Positions 23,549 through 63,489 of a stretch of 64,000 bases of DNA are shown in pieces. The first letter of the stretch is position 1, and each line of letters begins with the position of its first letter. The DNA comes from Candidatus Woesearchaeota archaeon CG10_big_fil_rev_8_21_14_0_10_45_16. GTDB taxonomy: Archaea; Nanobdellota; Nanobdellia; Woesearchaeales; GW2011-AR9. A model generated the notes under the pieces. That model was given only the letters and a program-made list of their open reading frames with translations. It was not told the origin of the DNA and did not search any database. The stretch is taken from contig PCXY01000005.1 in NCBI GenBank assembly GCA_002762785.1, positions 31,434 to 95,433 of the forward strand. The letters run 5' to 3'. The translations under genes and the position numbers were made by a program.

Positions 23549-24043
23549 TTGCTGATGAGGGTGGACACAGTAGAAAAGAGGACTGAAGCAGAAAGAGTAT
23601 TGAAAACCTTACTCCAAGAGCTTGATTTCTCTCAAATTTTAGAGCTGGTCACGACAGCTAAGAACGATATTCTTATCCCCCTATCAATTTTTGACACCCC
23701 ACTGCATCCGGCTGAAGCGTTATACAAATATCTTAGGGAGAACGAACGGTTGTCCAACCAAGATATCGCAGAGTTATTGGACCGCGACCAACGCAGCGTC
23801 TGGGCCAGCTACAGAAGAGCAAAGAAAAAACGGCCGCAGCATTTTCTTAAGAAACGAGAGAGATATCAGTTTAATATCAATCTGTTCAGGAACCGGCAGT
23901 TCAGTATCCTTGAGTCCATCATATACTACTTACACACCGTCCATAGATTGAGGACCAAAGAGATGGCCAGACTGCTAGGAAGCAGCCCTAACTCAACCGC
24001 TGTCTTACTGAAAAGAGCCAAGGTGAAACATGGAAAGAAGTGA
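23549..24043 (+). CDS. Tandem-HTH (sigma70 region-4-like) DNA-binding protein
   Basis: Two repeats: LSNQDIAELLDRDQRSVWASYRRAKKK and LRTKEMARLLGSSPNSTAVLLKRAKVK. Confidence 0.75.
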   Translation: MLMRVDTVEKRTEAERVLKTLLQELDFSQILELVTTAKNDILIPLSIFDTPLHPAEALYKYLRENERLSNQDIAELLDRDQRSVWASYRRAKKKRPQHFLKKRERYQFNINLFRNRQFSILESIIYYLHTVHRLRTKEMARLLGSSPNSTAVLLKRAKVKHGKK

Positions 24044-27000
24044 CCATGGTCCGCTGAAAGAGAAAGAAAGAGTCCTCATCATGAAACAGCGGCAGCTCTT
24101 CGACAGCCTGGCAAAAAGCAGAGTGATCAAGGGGAAAGATGCAAAGCGTTTCCAGCCATTGATCAAGCATGAAGAAGAGGAGCTTAAACAAGTACAACGT
24201 GAACTCAAGATCACCAGAGAAAAGATATGGGGAGCTGAGAACAGAGAGAAAAAATACACCACCCTCCGTGTAGGCATCGCTCTCAGTTTCCTCATCTCAA
24301 TCATGGTTCTGGTTAGTTTAGTTGGTGAGGGTGGCTTTGGTCTTCACTTAACCAAGGAAGGCCAAGGTTACACCTCTTTCTTCCAGAAAAATGTGATCAC
24401 TGGAGCGGCAGTGGCAGAGCAAGAGATCTCGGCGCAGCCACAGAAAGAGATTACGGTCGAACCAGAAAGAAAATCGATCGAGACGATAATAGATGAACAA
24501 CCAGAGAAGCAGGAAAAGGTAAGCACAACGGCGATAGGCCAGCCAGGATTTTTTATCCAGAGCGATCCGCCTCTCCTGGGAGCTAACTCTAACGTCAGCG
24601 CTTATCTTTTTAACGACTCTAACAACAACATACTCATATTTAATACGACGGAAGCTAACGACTACGACAACCTTCCAGCTTCAGGTTTCTTCGGCGGGGA
24701 TGTAAGATGGTGGGAGATGGGCGGTTTCCCCGACATGGCCTACATCGGTTCGACCAGTCGGTTCAGAAAGATATTTTTCAACCTTACCTCAGAAGGGTTC
24801 TCAGATCCGAATGATGAATGGTTTTATTATGACGGTAGCGGCTGGACGCCATTCAACCCGATCAACGAGACCAAATATTTTCAACAGACCGGAATCAACA
24901 TCCTTAACTTTACGGCTGGAGCGAACTGGAGCACTGTTTCTGTCGCAGGACTATATGGACCATATTATTGGGTGCGATTTACCTGCACTGACGGTTGTCA
25001 GACACTTGGAGTAGCGCAGATCTCCATTACGGCGACAGAATGTGAAGAATATATCTCGGCCTGTAAAAGTTCAGGATGGGTTCCAGGAAGAACTTACTGC
25101 TTAGACACAGATATCATCGGTGACGATGCCAGCTGCATGGTTTTCGATAATTCCAATATCACCCTTGATTGTCAGGGAAACATGATTGATGGTGACGGAG
25201 ACAGCAGCGGTCACGGCATTGATGTCACCACTCATGACAACATAACCATCGATCACTGCCTTATCAGTGATTTTAACCGAGGAGTATATTTCAGCGGCTC
25301 AGACGATTCCGTCGTGAGGAACTCCAACCTTACCCTTAACGTCGATGCGGGAATCTATATCACCAACAGCGACAACGGCACCGTGTTCAACAACTCCATC
25401 ATAGATCATGAGGGAACTTCTGCAAACGCAGACGGCGGCATCTTTATCAATGATCAAGCCCAGCATTGGAATATCTCTTTTAACAACTTCAGCTCTAACT
25501 ATTTCGGCATCAACTTCTATGGCAGCGCTGGACTTAATTCTCACAACAATGTCACCAGCAACCGTTTTGAAGGCAGCACCAGGGCGATCGGATTCCATAG
25601 CAACAGCGACGATACTGTCATAAAAGACAATATATTCTTAGACAGCACGCAGTATGCGGTGATCTTTGGGACAGCATCAGCTAACCAGAACAGATTTTAT
25701 AATAACCAGTTCAACGGCTCTACAACATTTGACATCTTTTTAAACATAGCACCAGGGGGCTTATACCAAACTTTCCTCAACAACTTTGCAGACGGATACG
25801 AGTTTTTCATGTGTTTCAATGATACATCATTCAGGTCAAACAACAACAGGACTGAAGCAGACAAGATCTTTAACATCGGTTCTTCCATCATCTATCAATG
25901 CAACAACGCCATCATCAATAATCTGACGACAGCATTCCATGTATCAAACAGTGATGATTTTGGAGCTCTGCTTATCACCGAAAGCGACAACGTCATCGTC
26001 AATAACAGCAATTTCACCAGCAACCTGGAAGGGATCAGCGTCAGGACATCTAACAATGCCACTATAAAGAATTCAGTATTTTACCTGAACGGTGATGCGG
26101 GGATCTACGTGAGTACTGGTGACAGTGGGACTATCTTTGGGAACACTTTCGTAGACCAGGATGGATCATCCAACAACCAGGACGGAGGCATCTTCCTCGA
26201 ACAGCTCAGTGATTACTGGAATATCACTGGCAACAATTTTTCATCTAACTACCACGGCATCAATCTTTATGGGAGCGGAGGAGTCAACACTTTTAACAAC
26301 ATCACGGCTAACTATTTTGATGGCAACACCCGAGGAGTAGCCTTCAACAGCCAGGGCCGTAGAAACATTATCCAGGACAACATCTTCCGTGGTCAGACGC
26401 AGTATGCAGTAATTTTCAACAGCGCGAGTGAGCTTTATGACGAGTTCTACAATAACCAGTTTAATGGATCGACGACATTTGACGTATTTTTGAGTTCTAT
26501 TGCGCTTAAGCATAACTTTCGAAATAATTTTGCCGACGGCTATGAATTTTTCATGTGTTATAATGAGAGTTATTTTGTGAGCAGCAACAATATGACCTTA
26601 GTTGACAGAGTATTCAGCCTAGGGTCTTCTATCCTGGCCGAATGTCCTTATGCCACGATCGACAACCTGACAGTGATGAACCATGTCTCCAACTCAGACG
26701 ATTTCGGGGCTTTCCTCATCACGCAAAGCAGTAATGTTACAGTAACAAATAGTAACTTCTCCTCAAACCTAGAAGGGATCAGTGTCCGTAGCTCTGATAA
26801 TGTAACGATCAAGAACTCAAAATTTTCCAGCAACACCGACGCGGGGATCTATCTCAACACTGCCGACAACGGAACTATCTTTAACAACACTTTCGTAGAT
26901 CAGGATGGATCATTCAACAACCAGGACGGAGGCATCTTCTTCGAACAGCTCAGTGATTATTGGAACATATCGCATAATACGTTCACTTCAAATTATCATG

Positions 27001-29954
27001 GGATAATGATGTATGGCTCCGGGGGATTGAACAGCGGTAACAAGCTTACCAGGAACGTGATCAACGGGAGCGTCTATGGGCTGCGTTTCGGATCTAACAG
27101 CGACCTTAACTTTATCTTTGAGAACACGTTCAGACACAGTGTCATTTCAGCAATACTTGTCGGTATCGGAGATGACTTTAACGTCTTCTTCCGCAACAAT
27201 TTTGAAAGCAATGCTGGAGCGACGGTAGTGAACACACCAGCCGACAACTATTTCAACACCACAGGTACGGGGAACTATTGGTTCCACTATGACACTGCTG
27301 CTGAAGGTTGTAACGACGACAATCTTGATGGTTTCTGTGATTCGCCTTTCAACAGCACCATCCAAGCTTCATTCCTGTCGCAGGATAATTTTCCATACAC
27401 TTCAGAAATCCAGTTCAACAAGCTTCCTAATATCACTTCAGTCTTTATTAACACGACAAATCCGGCTGCCAATGATACTACTACCAACATCACCTTGCAT
27501 ATCCAAGCCAGTGATGAAGAAGGCGATGCATTCACCAACATCACTGATTGGAGAAAAAACGGAACTTCTATAGCGGTAGTAAACCTACGCTTTGAAGCGA
27601 CAGACGGAAATGAAAGCAGTTGGACAAAAGATTATGGCAGTAAATTGAATCATGGGGTTGTAAGTGGTGGCGCAAGCTGGAGTTCAACTGGTGGATTTGA
27701 CGGTTATGGTGCTTATGATTTTGATGCAGATTCTGAAACTATAACTATCCCTTATCAGGATTCATTAAATATCACCGGGGATCTTACTATCTCTTTATGG
27801 ATAAAAGCAAGACCACAATCTGGAAATACTAGGATTCTTCAGCGAGGATCTTTAGGTTACTCTCTCTATTTATTTGGATCGACCGGAAGCCTCTACTTTG
27901 GTAACAACAACGGACAGATAAGAACAACAGCGACAACTTTTGAAGATGATACTTGGCATCACGTCGTCGCGCTACATAATGGTACTTCTGGAACATTTGC
28001 AGATTACGACCTTATTATTGATAGTGTCAACGTTCCCACTGTTAATTCTGGTTCATACACTGCATTTAGCGGTAGTAACTCAGATATACGAATTGGTTCG
28101 TTAGGCACAATAGATTACAATGGCTCTTTAGATGAGCTGATGATCTTCAACCACTCATTGTCGCAGGAACAGATCCTTGCTCTTTACCACAACCGGACCG
28201 ATCTGATTGTCAGTCAGGAAACAGCTACTGGAGATAACTGGACTGTTTGTGTTACTGCTAACGATAGGTTGCAGGATAGTCCAGAAACATGTTCAAACCA
28301 AGTGTTGATTATTGAAGCAACAGCCGGTCAAACTGTGCCGAGCATAACTTCTGTTTATGTCAATGCTACAGATTTCCCAAACAACACAACCAATGGCAAC
28401 CTGACAGTTTATGTTCAAGCAACAGATGCTGAGGGCGATGCGTTCACCAACATCACTGATTGGCGAGTAAATGGTACCTCGATAGCTGTTCTTAACATGC
28501 CATTTGAAGCGATGGGAGGAAATGAAGGTGAATCAACAAAGGATTATAGCAGTAAATCAAACAATGGAACAGTGACGGGAGCAGTATGGAACCAGACTGG
28601 AGGGTATGATGGATTTGGAGCGTATGAATTTGACGATACAGCAGATTACATCACCATACCATATACTCCTTCATTGAACATAACGCAAAATCTCACCATC
28701 TCAGTGTGGATTAAAGCACAGCAGCAGCAAGGAAATTCAAGAGTTATTTTTAGGGGGACGTTGGGATATAATCTCTATCTTTTTGGATCGACCGGGAGCC
28801 TCTACTTTGGTAACAACAACGGACAGATAAAAACAACAGCGACAACTTTTGAAGACGACACATGGCACCACGTCGTCGCGATGAAGAACGGAACTTCAGG
28901 ATCATTTGCAGATTACGACCTTATTATTGATGGTGTTGATGTTGAAACCACTTCATCTGGATCATTTGTGGAATTTAATGGAGATGGTAGCGACCTTAGC
29001 TTGGGGATATCAAGTATCGCTTTCAACGGTTCAATGGATGAATTGAAGATATTCAACCGTTCACTTTCAATAGAACAGATAATGGCGATTTATAACAACA
29101 GGACGGAGACCATAGTTAGCCAAGAAACTCTGGCTGGAGAAAACTGGACAGCTTGCGTAACTTCTAACGATAGAACTTCTAACAGCGCTGAAGTCTGTTC
29201 AAATCAATTGTTGGTATTGGGTGTCGCTGGCAACACCGCGCCGCCAGCTCCAGTATTGATCTCGCCACCGGATCAAAACACGACCATCAACAGGACGCCT
29301 AACTTCATCTGGAACAATTCAGTAGATACTGATGGCGATAACGTAACATATCATCTCATCGTCGATGACAACTCGGCATTCAACAATCCAGAGATAAATG
29401 TTAGTAATCTTAACGCATCCAACTTTTACAATACGACATACGCTAACACGACAGAACTGGCCGTCGATACGACATATTTCTGGAAAGTCCGCGGCTTTGA
29501 CGGAACTGACTTCGGATCTTTTTCCAGTACATTTAATTTCACGGTGCAGTCGTTCCTGGCCGTATCAGTACTGCAAGACACCATAAATTTCGGCACTGGA
29601 CTACCGAACCAGACTTTCAACACTACAGACGGCGCGCCCGCTCCGTTCAGGACAGAGAATGTCGGCAACATCGTATCTAATGTCACTATCACAGGGACGG
29701 CATATTTCACCTCCGTGGCCTTCCCTTCAAGCTACTATGTATTTAAAGTAAGAGAGAATGAGAGCAATGCTTTTAACCAGACGTTGTCAAACATCACCTA
29801 CATCAACATGCCTGATGCCAGCGCCTCACCGCATGTCCTCAACTTAAATTGGTATTCGTTCCAGAATGACTTTTTGACAGATATCAACATTACCGTACCG
29901 CCTGACGAGTCGTTCGGAGCCAAGAGTTCCACAGTCACATTTACGATATCATGA
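24030..29954 (+). CDS. Giant surface glycoprotein/adhesin: N-terminal TM, parallel beta-helix repeats, 2 LamG domains, Fn3, C-terminal pilin-like domain
   Basis: TM near aa 81-99; NosD/PbH1-type repeats; LamG motifs (LTISLWIK..WHHVVA..GSLDELMIFNHSLS); many N-x-S/T sequons. Confidence 0.88.
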   Translation: MERSDHGPLKEKERVLIMKQRQLFDSLAKSRVIKGKDAKRFQPLIKHEEEELKQVQRELKITREKIWGAENREKKYTTLRVGIALSFLISIMVLVSLVGEGGFGLHLTKEGQGYTSFFQKNVITGAAVAEQEISAQPQKEITVEPERKSIETIIDEQPEKQEKVSTTAIGQPGFFIQSDPPLLGANSNVSAYLFNDSNNNILIFNTTEANDYDNLPASGFFGGDVRWWEMGGFPDMAYIGSTSRFRKIFFNLTSEGFSDPNDEWFYYDGSGWTPFNPINETKYFQQTGINILNFTAGANWSTVSVAGLYGPYYWVRFTCTDGCQTLGVAQISITATECEEYISACKSSGWVPGRTYCLDTDIIGDDASCMVFDNSNITLDCQGNMIDGDGDSSGHGIDVTTHDNITIDHCLISDFNRGVYFSGSDDSVVRNSNLTLNVDAGIYITNSDNGTVFNNSIIDHEGTSANADGGIFINDQAQHWNISFNNFSSNYFGINFYGSAGLNSHNNVTSNRFEGSTRAIGFHSNSDDTVIKDNIFLDSTQYAVIFGTASANQNRFYNNQFNGSTTFDIFLNIAPGGLYQTFLNNFADGYEFFMCFNDTSFRSNNNRTEADKIFNIGSSIIYQCNNAIINNLTTAFHVSNSDDFGALLITESDNVIVNNSNFTSNLEGISVRTSNNATIKNSVFYLNGDAGIYVSTGDSGTIFGNTFVDQDGSSNNQDGGIFLEQLSDYWNITGNNFSSNYHGINLYGSGGVNTFNNITANYFDGNTRGVAFNSQGRRNIIQDNIFRGQTQYAVIFNSASELYDEFYNNQFNGSTTFDVFLSSIALKHNFRNNFADGYEFFMCYNESYFVSSNNMTLVDRVFSLGSSILAECPYATIDNLTVMNHVSNSDDFGAFLITQSSNVTVTNSNFSSNLEGISVRSSDNVTIKNSKFSSNTDAGIYLNTADNGTIFNNTFVDQDGSFNNQDGGIFFEQLSDYWNISHNTFTSNYHGIMMYGSGGLNSGNKLTRNVINGSVYGLRFGSNSDLNFIFENTFRHSVISAILVGIGDDFNVFFRNNFESNAGATVVNTPADNYFNTTGTGNYWFHYDTAAEGCNDDNLDGFCDSPFNSTIQASFLSQDNFPYTSEIQFNKLPNITSVFINTTNPAANDTTTNITLHIQASDEEGDAFTNITDWRKNGTSIAVVNLRFEATDGNESSWTKDYGSKLNHGVVSGGASWSSTGGFDGYGAYDFDADSETITIPYQDSLNITGDLTISLWIKARPQSGNTRILQRGSLGYSLYLFGSTGSLYFGNNNGQIRTTATTFEDDTWHHVVALHNGTSGTFADYDLIIDSVNVPTVNSGSYTAFSGSNSDIRIGSLGTIDYNGSLDELMIFNHSLSQEQILALYHNRTDLIVSQETATGDNWTVCVTANDRLQDSPETCSNQVLIIEATAGQTVPSITSVYVNATDFPNNTTNGNLTVYVQATDAEGDAFTNITDWRVNGTSIAVLNMPFEAMGGNEGESTKDYSSKSNNGTVTGAVWNQTGGYDGFGAYEFDDTADYITIPYTPSLNITQNLTISVWIKAQQQQGNSRVIFRGTLGYNLYLFGSTGSLYFGNNNGQIKTTATTFEDDTWHHVVAMKNGTSGSFADYDLIIDGVDVETTSSGSFVEFNGDGSDLSLGISSIAFNGSMDELKIFNRSLSIEQIMAIYNNRTETIVSQETLAGENWTACVTSNDRTSNSAEVCSNQLLVLGVAGNTAPPAPVLISPPDQNTTINRTPNFIWNNSVDTDGDNVTYHLIVDDNSAFNNPEINVSNLNASNFYNTTYANTTELAVDTTYFWKVRGFDGTDFGSFSSTFNFTVQSFLAVSVLQDTINFGTGLPNQTFNTTDGAPAPFRTENVGNIVSNVTITGTAYFTSVAFPSSYYVFKVRENESNAFNQTLSNITYINMPDASASPHVLNLNWYSFQNDFLTDINITVPPDESFGAKSSTVTFTIS

Positions 29955-29964
29955 CGCCAAAAAA

Positions 29965-31203
29965 ATGAATCGAAAAACCATAACCTGGATACTAGTACTG
30001 TTGCTGTCATTCCAGCTAGTCTTAGGGCTGGGAATACGGCCGGCCAAGACGACCATCTCGGCCGAAGACGGACCTATCTACGAAGGGACACTGACCATAG
30101 TTAATACTGATCACCAAGAGATGAAACTTAAGATCCACGCGGATGGTGAGATCGCTGACTTTATAGACATCGACAAGAAAAACATCAATTTCAAAGACGT
30201 TGATGAAGCGGAGACCGTACACTTTACTATCGAACTGCCGGAGGAAGTACCGCCAGAAGCATTATACGGCCTTATCGTGGTAGAACAGGAACCTGGCAAG
30301 AAAGTACAAAACGGCGTCGATTCCAGGGTCATCCTAAACCACGCCGTCAAGATTGAAGGAGAGATCCCAGAACTGTACCTTATGGCCAAGCTTAATTTCT
30401 ATGATAACGGCGATAAGATCAGACTGGTGTCTGAAGTTGAGAACATTGGCCATAAGGATATCAGCAAGGTGCAGACAACGTTCTATATCAACGACAGGAA
30501 ACAGGAAGTGCAAGCTTTGAAAACGGAAGAGACCAGCCTAGGATTAAGCGAAAACAAGCTGTTAGATACAGAGATCAGCAGGGACAACTTTGAGAACGGA
30601 GAGTTTTCAGTGTCAGCCGTCACAGATTATGACGGTCAGCAGACAGAAGTTGTCAAAAGCCTTATCATCGGAAGGCCGGAAGTGGAAGTTACGTTCTTTG
30701 ATAAATATTTCATAGCGAACAAGATCAACCAATACACTTTGGACCTGTTAAACCATTGGAACAAAGAGATCCAGAATGTCTACGTTGATGTGGCTGTGAA
30801 AAAAGACGACGAGAAGATCGATGAGTTCAGGACGCGTTCAGTTGATATCCCAGGGGAAGTTACCAAGAGGTTAGAGGATTACTTCGATGCTAAAGACAAA
30901 AGTCCAGGAGAGTATTCATTTGAGATGGTTGTCAATTTCTGGAACACCTACCGGATGGAAAGCAAAACTTATACCAGTGAACTGCTGACGGAAGAAGAGT
31001 TTAGAGGATTAAGCAGAGAGAAGATTCTGGAATCGGCAGTCAGCGGACAACCGGAAAGCCAGGAACCAAGATCAGGATTCTGGAAGATGGCAGGCATTGT
31101 AGCTCTTACGTTGATCCTAGGGTTCTTTTGCATCCTCGGCTTTGGATATCTGAAGCGAAGAAAGAACGAATATGAAAACGGCCCCAGTAACGATGAGTTT
31201 TAG
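29965..31203 (+). CDS. Secreted three-Ig-domain protein with C-terminal TM anchor (paralog of 61245-62453)
   Basis: Signal peptide; VENIGH, DYDG, NHWN, GEY motifs; C-terminal TM plus basic tail. Confidence 0.75.
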   Translation: MNRKTITWILVLLLSFQLVLGLGIRPAKTTISAEDGPIYEGTLTIVNTDHQEMKLKIHADGEIADFIDIDKKNINFKDVDEAETVHFTIELPEEVPPEALYGLIVVEQEPGKKVQNGVDSRVILNHAVKIEGEIPELYLMAKLNFYDNGDKIRLVSEVENIGHKDISKVQTTFYINDRKQEVQALKTEETSLGLSENKLLDTEISRDNFENGEFSVSAVTDYDGQQTEVVKSLIIGRPEVEVTFFDKYFIANKINQYTLDLLNHWNKEIQNVYVDVAVKKDDEKIDEFRTRSVDIPGEVTKRLEDYFDAKDKSPGEYSFEMVVNFWNTYRMESKTYTSELLTEEEFRGLSREKILESAVSGQPESQEPRSGFWKMAGIVALTLILGFFCILGFGYLKRRKNEYENGPSNDEF

Positions 31204-36189: not shown

Positions 36190-37098
36190 ATGGACAGACA
36201 AAAAAGAGGGATACTTGTAGCGGTAGTTGTACTGCTCGTTCTTTCATTAGTTCAGGTTACGACTATGTTCACTTTAACTGGAAAAGCCACCGCCACCAGA
36301 GGAAGCGTCAGCCTCAATTATCAGTTCCCCACACCTTCGGTTGTGCTTATCGCACCTGCAAATAATTTCACGGTAGAAACTGGAGAAGATAACTCAACCA
36401 TCACTTTTGTCTGCAAAGCAGGACACGTCACTACCCTTTTCAACCTGTCTTTGTATCTTAGCAACTCCACAAGAGGCAGTTTCGCCATCAACCAGACGAC
36501 CAATACCTCTGCCAAGAATGTTTCAGCTTTCTGGACCTTAGTATTAGAACGAGGCAACTACACCTGGAGCTGCCAAACATCCGATAACCGGACATACCCC
36601 TTCGCAGCAAACAGAAGCTTGACCATAAAATCACCGAACGCTGCGGTCGAAGTTGTACAAGGCGACGGAGGGGGAACAACGATTATCGGCGGCGGCGGCA
36701 CTCGTACGTTTAGGACCACTATCGAGAAGAATGCGACGTGTCCGCAGGAGACGATCTGCTTCGCCTGGAGTGAGTGCCGCATAGATGGAGCTCAAACAAG
36801 AGACTGTGTCCTGGTCCATGATGATTGTTCCGTCACCAAGTTCTCAGAAAAGAAAGAATGTAGGGCTACACCGTTGGAGAGACAGGTTCCCGGAGAGATT
36901 GAAAGGAGACAGGTTGAGCAGGCTCTAGAACAGATTGTCGAAAAGGGAGCCGATTTCATTCAAAGCAAGAGAACCACCGCATTTACAGCAGCCATCCTGC
37001 TATTAGCGTTCATAGTCTTTGTGATTATAAAAACTTCAGGACATAAAGAGGCTGCAACAGTTGCAACAGAGGTCACAAAAACCAAAAAGAAAAGATGA
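36190..37098 (+). CDS. Surface protein with N- and C-terminal TM helices, Ig-like domain and Cys-rich module
   Basis: TM, LTGKAT motif, GNYTWSC, Gly linker, CxxWSECxxDGxQTRxC. Confidence 0.75.
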   Translation: MDRQKRGILVAVVVLLVLSLVQVTTMFTLTGKATATRGSVSLNYQFPTPSVVLIAPANNFTVETGEDNSTITFVCKAGHVTTLFNLSLYLSNSTRGSFAINQTTNTSAKNVSAFWTLVLERGNYTWSCQTSDNRTYPFAANRSLTIKSPNAAVEVVQGDGGGTTIIGGGGTRTFRTTIEKNATCPQETICFAWSECRIDGAQTRDCVLVHDDCSVTKFSEKKECRATPLERQVPGEIERRQVEQALEQIVEKGADFIQSKRTTAFTAAILLLAFIVFVIIKTSGHKEAATVATEVTKTKKKR

Positions 37099-60798: not shown

Positions 60799-61248
60799 GT
60801 GAAACTAAAAACAGCCATCTTCATCATCAGCTGCACCATCATCGTCCTGCTCTCTAGCATCTATTTTATAGCCGACCACACCCTGCCGAAAGAGGTAATC
60901 AGTATCGATTTCGATTTTAATGTTTCTAATACCAACATCGGCTTTAATCTTGATGCCGACAAGATGCATTTCGGCCGCATCCATAGAGAAAGCCAAGGGA
61001 CCAGGAAGATCAAGATCGGCAATGATGCAGATTATCCGCAGAGAGCTGAGATACTGATCGCTTCTAAAGAGCAAGAGCAGATCCAAGATTGGTTCACGGT
61101 CACCCCTAACTGGAACTATCGCCTGCAGCCAAAACAGACAGAAACATTTTTGGCAACGCTGACCATCCCAAAAGAAGCTGAATATAAAACCTACGAAGGC
61201 GCTTTTGTCATCTATCTCTATAAAGACTGGCCCTGGAAAAAATCCTAA
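60799..61248 (+). CDS. Membrane-anchored single Ig-like domain protein
   Basis: N-terminal TM; GFNLDADKMHFGRI..RKIKIGN..LTIP..YEG. Confidence 0.7.
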   Translation: MKLKTAIFIISCTIIVLLSSIYFIADHTLPKEVISIDFDFNVSNTNIGFNLDADKMHFGRIHRESQGTRKIKIGNDADYPQRAEILIASKEQEQIQDWFTVTPNWNYRLQPKQTETFLATLTIPKEAEYKTYEGAFVIYLYKDWPWKKS

Positions 61249-62453
61249 AACCCATCCTGACTAGGCCCTTCTCGTTTATACTTATATAACAACAAGAACG
61301 AGAGCATGATGATGATAAGGATCAAGACGATCGGCAAGGCCAAGAAATAGTTCTGTCTAGCCGGCTGCTGCATGGCCGACTGCTCAGGAGTCGGTTCTAC
61401 CACAAGTATTGAAAAACTAGAATTAGCGCTTGGCTCATCGTCTACAAAGGTAGCTGCTTCTAAAACATAATCACCACTATTAACATCGCTAAAATCAAAG
61501 AAAGCATCGACATCAGCAGCTGAACGAGCTTCTATAGGATACGCTGCCGTCTGCGCCTCGGCCATGGTAGTACCATTCTTTGCTTTAAGAGTAAGAGAGA
61601 TCTCAGCTTTCAGGTCGCGGTTCCAGAAGTTCTCTACTGAAAGTTGGAATTGATCGATCGTACCCTGCACAAATTCATGCTTACTGATGCCGACAACTTT
61701 CACTACTTTATCGCCTAACTGTAGTAAGCCCTGGGCTTTGGCAGCTTCGCCATCATAATCCACAACTGCTTTATACTGGTACTGACCTAAAGGAAAATCG
61801 GAGGAATCCCATTGGGCATACATCTCGCCGCGTTCTTTATATCCCAAGTTCTGGACAGGGGTCAAAGGCACAGACAGGTTAATACCATCTTCTTGAGAAG
61901 AGATCTGGAGTTCACCCTTTGTCAAACCGACTGTCTCCCGACCATGGTTTCGAACATGAGCTACAAAATAGATCATATCGCCAACATGGTAGCGAAAAGA
62001 TTGATCCTGGGTCTGGACATCTATCGTAAGAAACTTGTTAGGATAGGGACCGATCAGAAAAACTTTTGCTTTTACCTGTGCTTTTCCCGCGAGCGGAGAT
62101 TGGCCGTATCCTTCCGGAGGTACTCCCTCTTTAAAAAAGATATCCATCGATTGGTAACCAGGCTGGTCTTCAAGATTGGGAACAGTAATTTCCAGATCAA
62201 TACGGCAAGAACTCAAACAGGTTTTTAGATCTGTCTTGATTCGGGAATGATCAGCAAGGGAACCGTCTAAAGTGATATCAACACCGTTTGGAATATTGGA
62301 TACAAAAAAAGTGATAGTCTCTTTATTGCCCGGAACATAATCTATTTCATAACCTACCGGAGAGATAGTGATGGCCAAGACAGAAGAAGAGAGAAATACA
62401 AAAGAGAGAGATAAAAAGAAAAATGTAGCTGTTTTTGACATCGTAGAGATCAA
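61245..62453 (-). CDS. Secreted three-Ig-domain protein with C-terminal TM anchor (paralog of 29965-31203)
   Basis: Signal peptide; VRNHG, DYDG, NFWN, GDY motifs; C-terminal TM. Confidence 0.75.
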   Translation of the reverse strand: MISTMSKTATFFFLSLSFVFLSSSVLAITISPVGYEIDYVPGNKETITFFVSNIPNGVDITLDGSLADHSRIKTDLKTCLSSCRIDLEITVPNLEDQPGYQSMDIFFKEGVPPEGYGQSPLAGKAQVKAKVFLIGPYPNKFLTIDVQTQDQSFRYHVGDMIYFVAHVRNHGRETVGLTKGELQISSQEDGINLSVPLTPVQNLGYKERGEMYAQWDSSDFPLGQYQYKAVVDYDGEAAKAQGLLQLGDKVVKVVGISKHEFVQGTIDQFQLSVENFWNRDLKAEISLTLKAKNGTTMAEAQTAAYPIEARSAADVDAFFDFSDVNSGDYVLEAATFVDDEPSANSSFSILVVEPTPEQSAMQQPARQNYFLALPIVLILIIIMLSFLLLYKYKREGPSQDGF

Positions 62454-63187
62454 TCCTGCTGGCCTATGGATTCAGCAGTGAAAGTGATGATCGTGGAGTG
62501 GCCGCCAATTGCAGCATCAAATGGGACAGATGCTCTATATGAAACAGATAACAGGTCACCAGAGTTGCCATAATCAAAATCCCCACAAAGGAGGACACCA
62601 GTAAGATTATGCGGTGCTGTCGGTGAAGAGGTATTGGTTTGGTTAAGCAGATCTCGAAAATTTAACAAAATCCCCGTATCGCAAGATCCTGCTTCAGCAG
62701 TTCCGGCAGAGATCGAGAGCCTCGCTGTAGCTGTTGATGTACATCCAAGTTCAGAACCACAAAAGAATTCCTCTGCGTCAAAATGATTGGCAGCAGCAGT
62801 CAAGTTGATATCAACGTTACCAGTATTCTCGATAGTCATGTTAGGATCGGAACCAAGATTGGCAACATTAGTCCAGGCGCCGGTGATGTTAGTGTTATTC
62901 TGAAAATTATGTCCTCCGTGAGTGTAGATTGTAGCCGTCGTGTTCCCTGGATTGACGTAACCTGTCCCGAACGTAGCGTTGGCGTCATTCATCACAATAC
63001 CAGCCTGAGCTTGGATAGTGATAGACGTCGAACCTGTACCGGTAGTAGCTGCTCCAGAGATGCCAAAACTATTAGGTTCAGAAAGTTGACTGACAGTCAC
63101 CACTGTTCCAATAACCGTGACAAGCAATGAAAGCATCAAAAGGCTGACGATGGCCCTGTTAGAGAAATCAGCTTTTACTTTCTTCAT
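62450..63187 (-). CDS. Putative pilin/fibre major subunit
   Basis: Signal anchor; ISGAAT motif; beta-rich domain homologous to the C-terminus of the 24030 protein. Confidence 0.65.
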   Translation of the reverse strand: MKKVKADFSNRAIVSLLMLSLLVTVIGTVVTVSQLSEPNSFGISGAATTGTGSTSITIQAQAGIVMNDANATFGTGYVNPGNTTATIYTHGGHNFQNNTNITGAWTNVANLGSDPNMTIENTGNVDINLTAAANHFDAEEFFCGSELGCTSTATARLSISAGTAEAGSCDTGILLNFRDLLNQTNTSSPTAPHNLTGVLLCGDFDYGNSGDLLSVSYRASVPFDAAIGGHSTIITFTAESIGQQD

Positions 63188-63417
63188 CAGAAATCATCTC
63201 CAGAAGATTTTATCAAGACGGAAACTTGACCATCCATTGTTGACGATCCAGTATTATAATCGGCTGGGGGATAGGCTTGCAATGAAACATCTCCCGTTGT
63301 AGAAGAACTGATGCCTCCCAAGATATCTAGGTAGAGAACAAGGCTGACTACACTCACCAGGATGACAAATGTCAGCATAAACACAACCGTCTCGTTAGAT
63401 ATATCTTGATTTGCCAT
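63187..63417 (-). CDS. 76-aa membrane protein, putative fibre anchor
   Basis: N-terminus similar to 62450 (ISNETVV vs FSNRAIV); SD GAGGT; coupled to 62450. Confidence 0.65.
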   Translation of the reverse strand: MANQDISNETVVFMLTFVILVSVVSLVLYLDILGGISSSTTGDVSLQAYPPADYNTGSSTMDGQVSVLIKSSGDDF

Positions 63418-63489
63418 CCATTACCTCAACTCTTTTTGTAGTAGAATGAGTACATTATGTTTATATATCTTTCGTATCCTGTAAAGTGC

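Follow-up and report, generated by a model that had tools for sequence, protein, structure and literature searches.

A candidate chaperone-assisted strand-complementation fibre cassette in a Woesearchaeota-type archaeon

The stretch of DNA analysed here (the window) comprises 64,000 nucleotides (nt) of Candidatus Woesearchaeota archaeon CG10_big_fil_rev_8_21_14_0_10_45_16, positions 31,434-95,433 of contig PCXY01000005.1 (assembly GCA_002762785.1). The host genome consists of 1.18 Mb in 6 contigs and is 98% complete. The window carries a cassette of four genes which, with moderate confidence founded on sequence comparisons and a structure model, is read as the core of a chaperone-assisted, strand-complementation fibre of this Woesearchaeota-type (DPANN) archaeon, with an adhesin supplied by a half-locus 30 kb away. 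The system is best understood as analogous, in an archaeon, to the bacterial Elr/WxL and Pam pili.

Three of the four genes lie on the reverse strand. They encode a 76 amino acid (aa) strand-only membrane protein (63187-63417), a candidate base anchor or terminator recognized by its homology to the N-terminus of the next product; a 245-aa pilin-like fibre subunit (62450-63187), defined by its open reading frame (ORF), a family alignment and a structure model; and a 402-aa membrane-anchored protein of chaperone-like type (61245-62453), assigned from sequence profiles. The fourth gene, on the forward strand (60799-61248), encodes a protein of 149 aa in which an N-terminal membrane helix precedes a single ASH/PapD-like immunoglobulin (Ig) domain, also recognized by profiles. 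The first two genes overlap by 1 nt and the second and third by 4 nt, while the 402-aa and 149-aa genes converge, with a 4-nt overlap at their stop codons. The 402-aa ORF starts with TTG; an ATG at 62441 would give a form of 398 aa, which is present letter for letter in the ESM Atlas. An earlier sequence-only reading of this DNA had proposed a donor-strand-exchange fibre operon here, and the four ORFs as well as the motifs that it quoted (ISGAAT, TGTGSTSITI and MDGQVSVLI) are all present.

Relatives of the subunit are numerous. An exhaustive search of 1.84 billion representatives gave, at the level of clusters, 538 relatives with E<=1e-3, of which 123 had E<=1e-10; a word-prefiltered homologue search had been too shallow, yielding the subunit itself plus one relative, and for the 398-aa protein only itself. 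In a phylum-wide sample of 301 genomes the subunit profile matched 157, which belong to 113 of the 225 genera covered. For the analysis of gene order, loci were collected in three sets (20 short, 14 extended and 20 from named metagenome-assembled genomes) and their ORFs were scanned with purpose-built hidden Markov models (HMMs). Removal of five duplicates left 31 distinct Woesearchaeota/Nanoarchaeota loci, with the window counted in. The depositors name the relatives of the host genome's proteins as Woesearchaeota or Nanoarchaeota.

The gene for the small protein adjoined the subunit gene in all 31 loci (in one of these, L044, the small ORF was at first classed as 'other' owing to ORF extension, although the motif is visible in its sequence). 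A 402-type gene followed the subunit gene in 29 loci, the remaining two stopping at a contig edge, and the 149-type family was present in 28. The gap between small and subunit genes was <=0 nt in 10 of 30 loci. Gene order is thus conserved, and since there are 538 cluster-level relatives of the subunit and the same order recurs in 31 loci, the initial observation of a cassette is confirmed as real and beyond chance.

In 19 of the 26 loci where it was found, the 149-type gene lay directly 3' of the 402-type gene on the same strand, and 14 of these 19 junctions were overlapping; in the other 7 loci, the window among them, it was inverted. The convergent arrangement described in the sequence-only reading therefore holds for the window but not for the 19 loci with both genes on one strand. 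Because of its position in those 19 loci, the 149-aa gene is a fourth member of the cassette, which might provide a second chaperone-like or platform component. The co-directional order also makes it seem that a local inversion took place exactly at the boundary of this gene in the window and in the six other loci. A further type of ORF, about 490-530 aa long and with a partial match to the ASH-like domain of the 149-aa protein, lies a few kb from cassettes in other genomes (G007:C4:37451, G019:C2:3952, G021:C17:34885, G029:C27:7028 and G060:C88:5375); a scan with the 149-type profile detected none in the genome of the window. These proteins may be a further, facultative component.

Co-occurrence across genomes was assessed by cross-reading two scans of genomes G001-G060. 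Subunit and 402-type genes occurred together in 27 and were both absent from 22. The subunit alone was matched in 3, all of these being weak matches limited to the N-terminus, and the 402-type gene alone in 8, of which 5 became subunit-positive with a deeper profile. The distribution of the 149-type gene followed the same pattern of co-occurrence. Some relatives possess 2-11 subunit paralogues per genome, including tandem subunit genes inside one cassette; the genome of the window has a single subunit gene. One genome of the same family (G005) has 9-11 subunit paralogues with only one 402-type gene, and several of its subunit frames contain an in-frame TAG, which could be a matter of subunit variation, of decay or of the genetic code. 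Complete cassettes were also found on contigs labelled Omnitrophota bacterium (L037, JAGVOB010000125.1) or 'uncultured Methanosarcinales' (L039, L043, L045, L047, L048, L052 and L055), and these labels are probably binning or labelling artefacts that do not indicate the true hosts.

The subunit family was aligned from 86 relatives. The N-terminus follows the pattern M-x-[DE]-[VI]-S-N-[KR]-T and leads into a 20-residue hydrophobic helix, with strong conservation of S9 (77 of 86), N10 (80), K or R at position 11 (84), G27 (82) and T28 (82). About 12 residues past the helix stands an L[TS]GAA motif (residues 43-47, with G45 in 83 of the 86), and the Gly/Thr-rich arm carries a strand, G-x-x-[STN]-[ILV]-T-[IVL], at residues 52-60. 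The body (residues 64-240) is beta-rich and contains two conserved Cys pairs and nine N-glycosylation sequons. Mean-field direct coupling analysis (171 sequences) recovered the disulfides C143-C149 and C169-C201 together with contacts between core strands; it gave no contacts for the N-terminal strand, which is uninformative either way.

An AlphaFold2 (AF2) model built on the 86 sequences had a mean predicted local distance difference test score (pLDDT) of 83.5 and a predicted template modelling score (pTM) of 0.71. It shows a helix at residues 9-35, no regular structure at 36-63 and a beta-sandwich at 64-240. The pLDDT falls below 50 at residues 41-47 and averages 79 at residues 51-60, and the conserved strand 52-60 lies outside any sheet of the monomer. 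Both the alignment and the model agree with the role of fibre subunit that had been suggested for the 245-aa protein, which bears a free, strand-carrying N-terminal arm.

The 76-aa protein contains a DISN motif and a membrane helix, followed by the subunit-type strand in duplicate (GDVSLQA.. and GQVSVLI). Searches with jackhmmer and alignment to positions 2-63 of the subunit HMM indicated that the small protein corresponds to the first ~65 residues of the subunit plan, with no body. In the family at large, D[IVF]SN plus the helix is often preceded by a K/R-rich tail, and the strand is usually followed by E-P-P; of the 30 small proteins, 28 have at least one strand motif and about 13 have it twice. 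Small protein and subunit have the strand core G1..[STN]4-[ILV]5-x-[IVL]7 in common, and in the genome of the window the D[IVF]SN motif was found only in the 76-aa and 245-aa proteins. A protein made of a helix and a strand lacks a fold of its own and would have to pair with another sheet.

Strands from the same locus are more alike than strands from different loci. The mean BLOSUM62 score was 14.70 for cognate and 12.02 for non-cognate pairs (label permutation, p=3e-4; 23 of 30 pairs could be aligned without gaps), and cognate similarity also exceeded that of residue-shuffled controls at p<=5e-4, a comparison in which related genomes are not independent. In sequence the 76-aa protein is the N-terminal module of the subunit without the body, with a strand that co-varies with that of the cognate subunit, which fits its proposed role as a membrane anchor that contributes a donor strand only.

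A further difference between the two proteins concerns processing. The [TS]G of the processing-type motif was present in 26 of 30 subunits and in none of 30 small proteins. In the genome of the window, [LIVFM][TS]G.[AV] occurs 8-45 residues past an N-terminal membrane helix in 16 secreted ORFs (background 2.2e-4 per residue), suggesting that the motif is possibly a signal-processing site typical of the lineage. The ORFs with this motif include the 24030 region and positions 36190-37098 of the window as well as G000:C1:3852; one is a 1496-aa protein in which the next segment resembles the subunit arm. Cleavage at the motif would free the N-termini of subunit and adhesin, and would leave the small protein anchored.

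When the subunit model was compared with the Protein Data Bank (PDB) using Foldseek, the only matches at E<=1e-3 were an entry titled TLP-1a (8.1e-4) and the TasA fibre (9.6e-4, probability 1.00, TM 0.37), followed by TLP-1b, the Sulfolobus thread, PapE, FimF/G and CfaB. VIA-align, with candidates drawn from Foldseek's own top 1000, ranked a cannula fibre best (Z 7.1, root-mean-square deviation (rmsd) 4.8, 141 residues), with FimA (6.5), the Pyrobaculum bundling pilus AbpA (6.5), Csu (6.3), the thread (6.3) and TasA (5.8) among the further matches. Alignments to FimA, FimG, PapA and CsuA/B had Z 5.0-6.5 and rmsd 3.2-3.9 over 110-120 residues. The best 50 VIA-align rows consisted of 40 strand-complemented filament subunits, spanning type 1, P, Csu and CS pili, cannulae, bundling pili, the thread and TasA, together with 5 ASH/MSP/PapD-like domains, 2 TLP entries and 3 others. 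In the ESM Atlas, structural neighbours of the subunit included SipW-class/camelysin clusters (TM 0.43) and a Saccharimonadota cluster (TM 0.51 by query). The nearest folds are thus mostly strand-complemented subunits, but all matches have Z <8, and the fold evidence for a strand-complemented filament subunit is suggestive, not decisive.

The 402-aa protein and its relatives, termed the 402/412 family, have a Sec-type signal peptide, three Ig domains (D1-D3), a C-terminal membrane helix and a basic K/R tail. D2 and D3 are homologous repeats (hhalign 96.9%, E 1.6e-10) of CARDB-like type, CARDB itself being matched below threshold in 6 of 17 family members, and hhalign shows D1 and the Ig domain carried by the 149-aa protein to be homologous (94%, E 8e-8). 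The description of a three-Ig protein is therefore accurate, the three being D1 and the repeat pair D2/D3. When PDB sequences were searched with profiles, nothing significant came up for the subunit or the 402 family; the 149-aa profile matched HYDIN (8.2e-13), FAP65 (5e-7) and CEP192 (5e-4), with a weak match to the CS6 fimbrial subunit (0.01), and Pfam gave ASH, Cep192_D4 and WxLIP_PGBD below threshold. In Pfam, a single clan contains both the ASH domains and the PapD-like chaperone domains. No relation was detected by hhalign between the 149-aa and subunit families (9.7%).

At the end of D1, a long strand of alternating hydrophobic residues directly precedes a conserved P-Y-P. It occupies the position at which ElrE and PapD-type chaperones donate a strand, a likeness that is one of resemblance only. 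A second member of the family, of 412 aa, is encoded on the forward strand at 29965-31203, next to the giant adhesin gene, and is, by a BLASTP alignment of 330 columns (E 4e-16), a paralogue of the 402-aa protein. The genome contains no other full-length member of the family, and the majority of positive relatives likewise have two copies. Multi-Ig surface proteins of the CARDB/DUF11 type are common among the structural neighbours of the 402-aa protein in the ESM Atlas. As paralogous, membrane-anchored multi-Ig proteins, the two products would suit the chaperone role that had been assigned to both. The cytoplasmic tails of the family end in an acidic-acidic-hydrophobic tripeptide (DGF, DEF, EEF, DEV, SEI, NEL and others, in the window and in L022-L035), a feature of sequence that suggests a cytoplasmic binding partner or a sorting signal.

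The subunit profile had three targets in the genome: the subunit itself, the N-terminal part of the 76-aa protein, and the C-terminus of a 1974-aa protein (E 1.8e-6), which is encoded on the forward strand at 24030-29954 and is a candidate tip adhesin. It consists of an N-terminal membrane helix, the motif VITGAA, NosD-type beta-helix repeats, two LamG/ConA-like lectin domains and the subunit-like C-terminal domain (approximately 29517-29951), which aligns with the subunit by hhalign at 96% (E 3.4e-9). An alignment of the C-termini of eight such giants, in which one row is a misplaced small protein, gave 98.1% (E 9.8e-14) over subunit columns 49-229. The same module ends 35 large proteins (354-1978 aa) at 45-60% identity, with one weaker case at 35%, and their payloads are mostly LamG, with beta-helix, pentaxin-like, FG-GAP/VCBS and other types. 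The placement of the 1974-aa protein at the tip is compatible with these profile and hhalign results, according to which it ends in a domain of the subunit-like acceptor type.

In six relatives (L024, L026, L031, L039, L047 and L049), the genes for a giant, a 412-type protein, a small protein, one or more subunits, a 402-type protein and a 149-type protein stand in a single array. Judged from this arrangement, the two loci 30 kb apart in the window are halves of one system.

Taken together, the mechanism proposed is as follows. The 245-aa subunit would be inserted into the membrane by its N-terminal helix and processed near L[TS]GAA, which would release the Gly/Thr-rich arm with the strand G-x-x-S-[IL]-T-[IV]. 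The 402-aa and 412-aa membrane Ig proteins, with their 149-aa relative, would retain the adhesin and freshly exported subunits at the membrane. The giant lectin/beta-helix protein is placed at the distal tip because it has a subunit-like C-terminal domain but lacks the subunit-type arm. Subunits would be added at the base, each lending its N-terminal strand to the sandwich of the preceding one. The 76-aa protein, because it has helix and strand as in the subunit but neither a body nor a processing motif, would plug the last subunit and tie the fibre to the membrane. The roles given to these proteins in the sequence-only reading are the best-supported ones on the sequence and model data, and its overall interpretation is partly supported.

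Two bacterial systems offer the closest comparison. The Elr/WxL pilus (ElrA-E) of Enterococcus faecalis and other Bacillota is chaperone-assisted and is described as confined to Bacillota (bioRxiv 10.64898/2026.10.17.759780). According to the same source, ElrA has an N-terminal payload and a C-terminal pilin-type domain, and ElrE has a C-terminal membrane anchor and donates a strand. WxLIP proteins consist of DUF916 (PF06030), DUF3324 (PF11797) and a C-terminal membrane helix (PMC10599100).

The Elr system and the archaeal set have in common a large tip adhesin with a varied lectin or beta-helix payload and a C-terminal pilin-type domain; a pilin of ~230 aa with its N-terminal strand on a flexible arm; a small protein with a strand but no acceptor body, which in the archaeon would likewise tie the base to the cell; and a multi-Ig chaperone or chaperone-like protein held by a C-terminal helix. 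Either system can be present in several copies per genome. The tip-adhesin feature is seen in the variable payloads and the C-terminal pilin-type domain of the giants, with the D[IV]SN arm module confined to the 76-aa and 245-aa proteins. In neither system does an ATPase or usher form part of the set; no search for ushers was made here.

The base proteins would be analogous in function but differ in chemistry: the Elr base subunit is anchored by LPxTG and sortase, whereas the archaeal base protein, in the sequence of which no LPxTG was seen, would be anchored by its N-terminal membrane helix in a host without peptidoglycan. A further difference is the highly conserved helix with D[IV]SN motif that is common to the archaeal subunit and base protein, and the archaeal chaperone-like protein, unlike that described for Elr, has three Ig domains and an additional single-domain relative (149 aa).

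Membership in the bacterial families was not apparent from profiles. Only three families had a match in any of the 86 subunit relatives, and WxL (PF13731) was not one of these; its model, run over 5 genomes, gave a single match (E=3.4), to an unrelated ORF of 1707 aa, and none to a subunit gene. PF06030 appeared only in the 149-aa family, below threshold in 4 of 15 members (best E 0.006). Feature-based leads in the ESM Atlas connected the subunit to a WxL cluster (0.81) and the 402-aa protein to a WxLIP_PGBD+WxLIP_HBD cluster (0.90, 200 of 256 features). Since these two leads and the PF11797/PF06030 matches are independent, if weak, and each links an archaeal part to the matching part of the WxL system, distant homology is possible but unproven. 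The parallel to WxL/DUF916 clusters that was first drawn is thus borne out for the parts list and its logic, but not for sequence membership in the WxL, DUF916, DUF3324 or TasA families.

The Pam pilus of candidate phyla radiation (CPR) bacteria comprises the pilins PamA/B/E, the tip PamT, the chaperones PamC/D and the anchor PamR; its authors call the pilins exclusive to CPR, PamC/D are membrane-anchored PapD-like chaperones with C-terminal helices, and PamR is a membrane-anchored terminator (PMC13278184). The archaeal set resembles Pam in its single-membrane, ultra-small hosts of episymbiont type without a trans-envelope machine, in Ig-like subunits proposed to join by donor-strand exchange, in two membrane-anchored chaperone-like proteins with C-terminal helices, and in a membrane-anchored terminator with an N-terminal strand. 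Compared by description, the pilins of Pam are two-domain proteins with a linker strand and PamR contains a pair of FnIII domains, whereas the archaeal subunit is a single-domain protein and the anchor a peptide only.

Adhesins of chaperone-usher pili have an N-terminal payload and a C-terminal pilin domain, and the archaeal adhesin likewise has its pilin-type domain at the C-terminus. The archaeal chaperone-like domain is linked to PapD of the chaperone-usher systems only at superfamily level, via the ASH match of the 149-aa protein, and while chaperone-usher hosts have an outer membrane, the archaeal host has none and its chaperone-like proteins are membrane-anchored. The TasA fibre, cannula CanA, bundling pilus AbpA and thread Saci_0406 provide the best fold matches of the archaeal subunit, with which these filaments have in common a glycosylated extracellular beta-sandwich with an N-terminal arm, and a role like that of TapA or of the Saci_0405 cap is conceivable for the small accessory protein. 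Neither the archaeal strand-donation filaments nor the TasA systems are known to have a dedicated membrane-anchored Ig chaperone.

Several observations weigh against a chaperone-assisted fibre. The N-terminal helix of the subunit is conserved far beyond ordinary cleaved signal peptides, which may point to a dedicated partner or to a helix that is retained, and the presumed cleavage site at L[TS]GAA lies ~12 residues beyond the helix. The similarity of cognate strands could result from common ancestry or from gene conversion within the locus. The giant adhesin also has, in the hhalign alignment, a counterpart of the first strand of the subunit, so that the exchanged strand may be another one. 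No Pfam or NCBIfam family was found above threshold for any of the four cassette proteins, and D1 alone had no significant PDB sequence match in the profile search. PapD_N (PF00345) had 0 matches in 5 genomes at E<=10; PF11797 was detected in 7 of 17 members of the 402 family (best E 2.3e-4), always below the cut-off, and weak matches of WxLIP models in 5 genomes fall mostly on other large Ig proteins. Every fold match in the Foldseek and VIA-align comparisons had Z <8 and TM <=0.37, values which, as the program itself cautions, can arise from no more than a common Ig-like or jelly-roll arrangement.

Much of the evidence from synteny, strand co-variation and adhesin domains would serve equally for a short strand-complemented display complex, in which the membrane peptide anchors one or a few subunits carrying the giant lectin protein, as the Csc/WxL 'cell-surface complexes' were first pictured. 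The single subunit gene in the genome of the window would fit such a complex, and small proteins, which often have two strands, could tie two subunits. The 2-11 subunit paralogues and tandem subunit genes of relatives, however, are typical of polymerising pilins, and the nearest folds are filament subunits, so that this alternative appears unlikely, though it deserves serious consideration. Less probable again is a neighbourhood of ordinary membrane-anchored, glycosylated envelope or adhesion proteins that exchange no strand and for which the N-terminus is a common targeting or anchoring signal. The lack of family matches above threshold, fold matches that are all below Z 8, an N-terminal helix conserved like a functional anchor, and the multi-Ig CARDB/DUF11-type surface proteins common among neighbours of the 402-aa protein would all agree with it, but it would leave unexplained a protein consisting of the conserved helix with one or two strand copies, the co-variation of cognate strands, the detached arm of the model and the subunit-like C-terminal domain of the giants.

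A fibre of the TasA, bundling-pilus or cannula type that needs no chaperone, with the 402-, 412- and 149-aa proteins as stalks, anchors or adhesins and the 76-aa protein as a TapA-like nucleator or anchor, is considered improbable. It draws on the best Foldseek matches (TLP-1a and TasA, E 8.1e-4 and 9.6e-4), on the VIA-align scores of the cannula and the bundling pilus (Z 7.1 and 6.5), on the SipW-class/camelysin neighbours in the ESM Atlas (TM 0.43), and on the published archaeal strand-donation filaments, none of which is known to use a chaperone (PMC9715654; bioRxiv 10.64898/2026.10.17.759780 on Tat-dependent pili). On the other hand, none of the 86 subunit relatives had a match to Peptidase_M73, the subunit is coupled to a membrane Ig gene in 29 of 31 loci, and each giant adhesin comes with its own paralogue of that gene. 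A chaperone-free fibre is disfavoured because the coupling of subunit and Ig protein is what defines the Elr and Pam systems.

An atypical type IV pilin-like subunit accompanied by the 76-aa protein, with a helix core formed after cleavage by the single A24 prepilin peptidase, is very improbable. The very conserved N-terminal helix with its short leader would suit it, small archaeal pilins of ~70 aa exist, and the genome has one Peptidase_A24 and one T2SSE-type ATPase. Both of these lie away from the cassette, however, the ATPase being on another contig (C4), and no ATPase or platform gene was found in the conserved set of the 14 extended loci. The residue before the helix is T in 67 of the 86 relatives and A in 4, with no G among the five commonest residues listed, whereas the four class III-type proteins of the genome carry a different motif, [KR]GQVT[VI]F[IV]I. 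In the AF2 model the helix gives way to a Gly-rich, low-confidence linker and does not continue, and the adhesin has a subunit-like domain at its C-terminus instead of a pilin helix at its N-terminus. The earlier statement that no class III signal peptide is present holds for the family, in which the consensus is T and not G/A, but the window subunit, taken alone, fits a loose FlaFind-type regular expression (R-A-I-V-S-L). Identity with an archaeal type IV pilin was tried and rejected, the family consensus before the helix being N-K-T and linkage to an ATPase being absent.

Some further features of the two loci may bear on their expression. A GAGGT motif resembling a Shine-Dalgarno sequence stands directly 5' of the ATG of the 76-aa gene, and a putative archaeal BRE/TATA element (transcription factor B recognition element and TATA box), cGAAAGATATATAAAC, lies on the reverse strand at 63459-63474, ~45-55 nt upstream of that start codon. 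By eye, about 14 of 30 loci have this element, as cGAAA(a/g)gTATATAAA, 35-75 nt 5' of the gene for the small protein. At 23549-24043, on the forward strand, a gene for a 164-aa protein with two helix-turn-helix motifs (Sigma70_r4_2, 7.9e-11; HTH_24, 2.2e-5) runs with its 3' end 14 nt into the giant adhesin gene, and its product is, from these domain matches, a candidate regulator of the adhesin half-locus. DNA of the window is present in groundwater metagenomes, with 5 datasets listed, all of DNA and none of RNA.

No description of a chaperone-assisted strand-exchange fibre in archaea, and nothing relevant on pilins or adhesins of Woesearchaeota, came up in the literature searched. In this respect the filament may be called undescribed, as had been claimed, but close functional analogues in Bacillota and CPR bacteria were described in 2026. 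The donor-strand design with membrane-tethered helpers has so far been shown only in bacteria, and if the present reading is true, the principle would be extended to a third known lineage, in another domain of life, and would be present in about half of the sampled genomes of the phylum (157 of 301). Large families of 'hypothetical' proteins, namely the 538 subunit clusters and the LamG giants, would acquire a role.

Host attachment as a function is inferred from the lectin-type payloads. In its fullest form, which is offered tentatively and is open to considerable doubt, the proposal is that the system is a true chaperone-assisted donor-strand-exchange pilus of Woesearchaeota and related DPANN archaea, lectin-tipped and glycosylated, with growth at the base and a strand-only membrane peptide as its cap; that it corresponds, and may even be distantly related, to the Elr/WxL and Pam pili and represents a shared solution of single-membrane cells in both domains; and that it serves as a main organelle of host attachment. 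The strand-only anchor and the conserved helix motif provide simple experimental handles, and the cassette, if correctly interpreted, would be a concrete and testable candidate for the means by which uncultivated DPANN cells hold on to hosts or surfaces.

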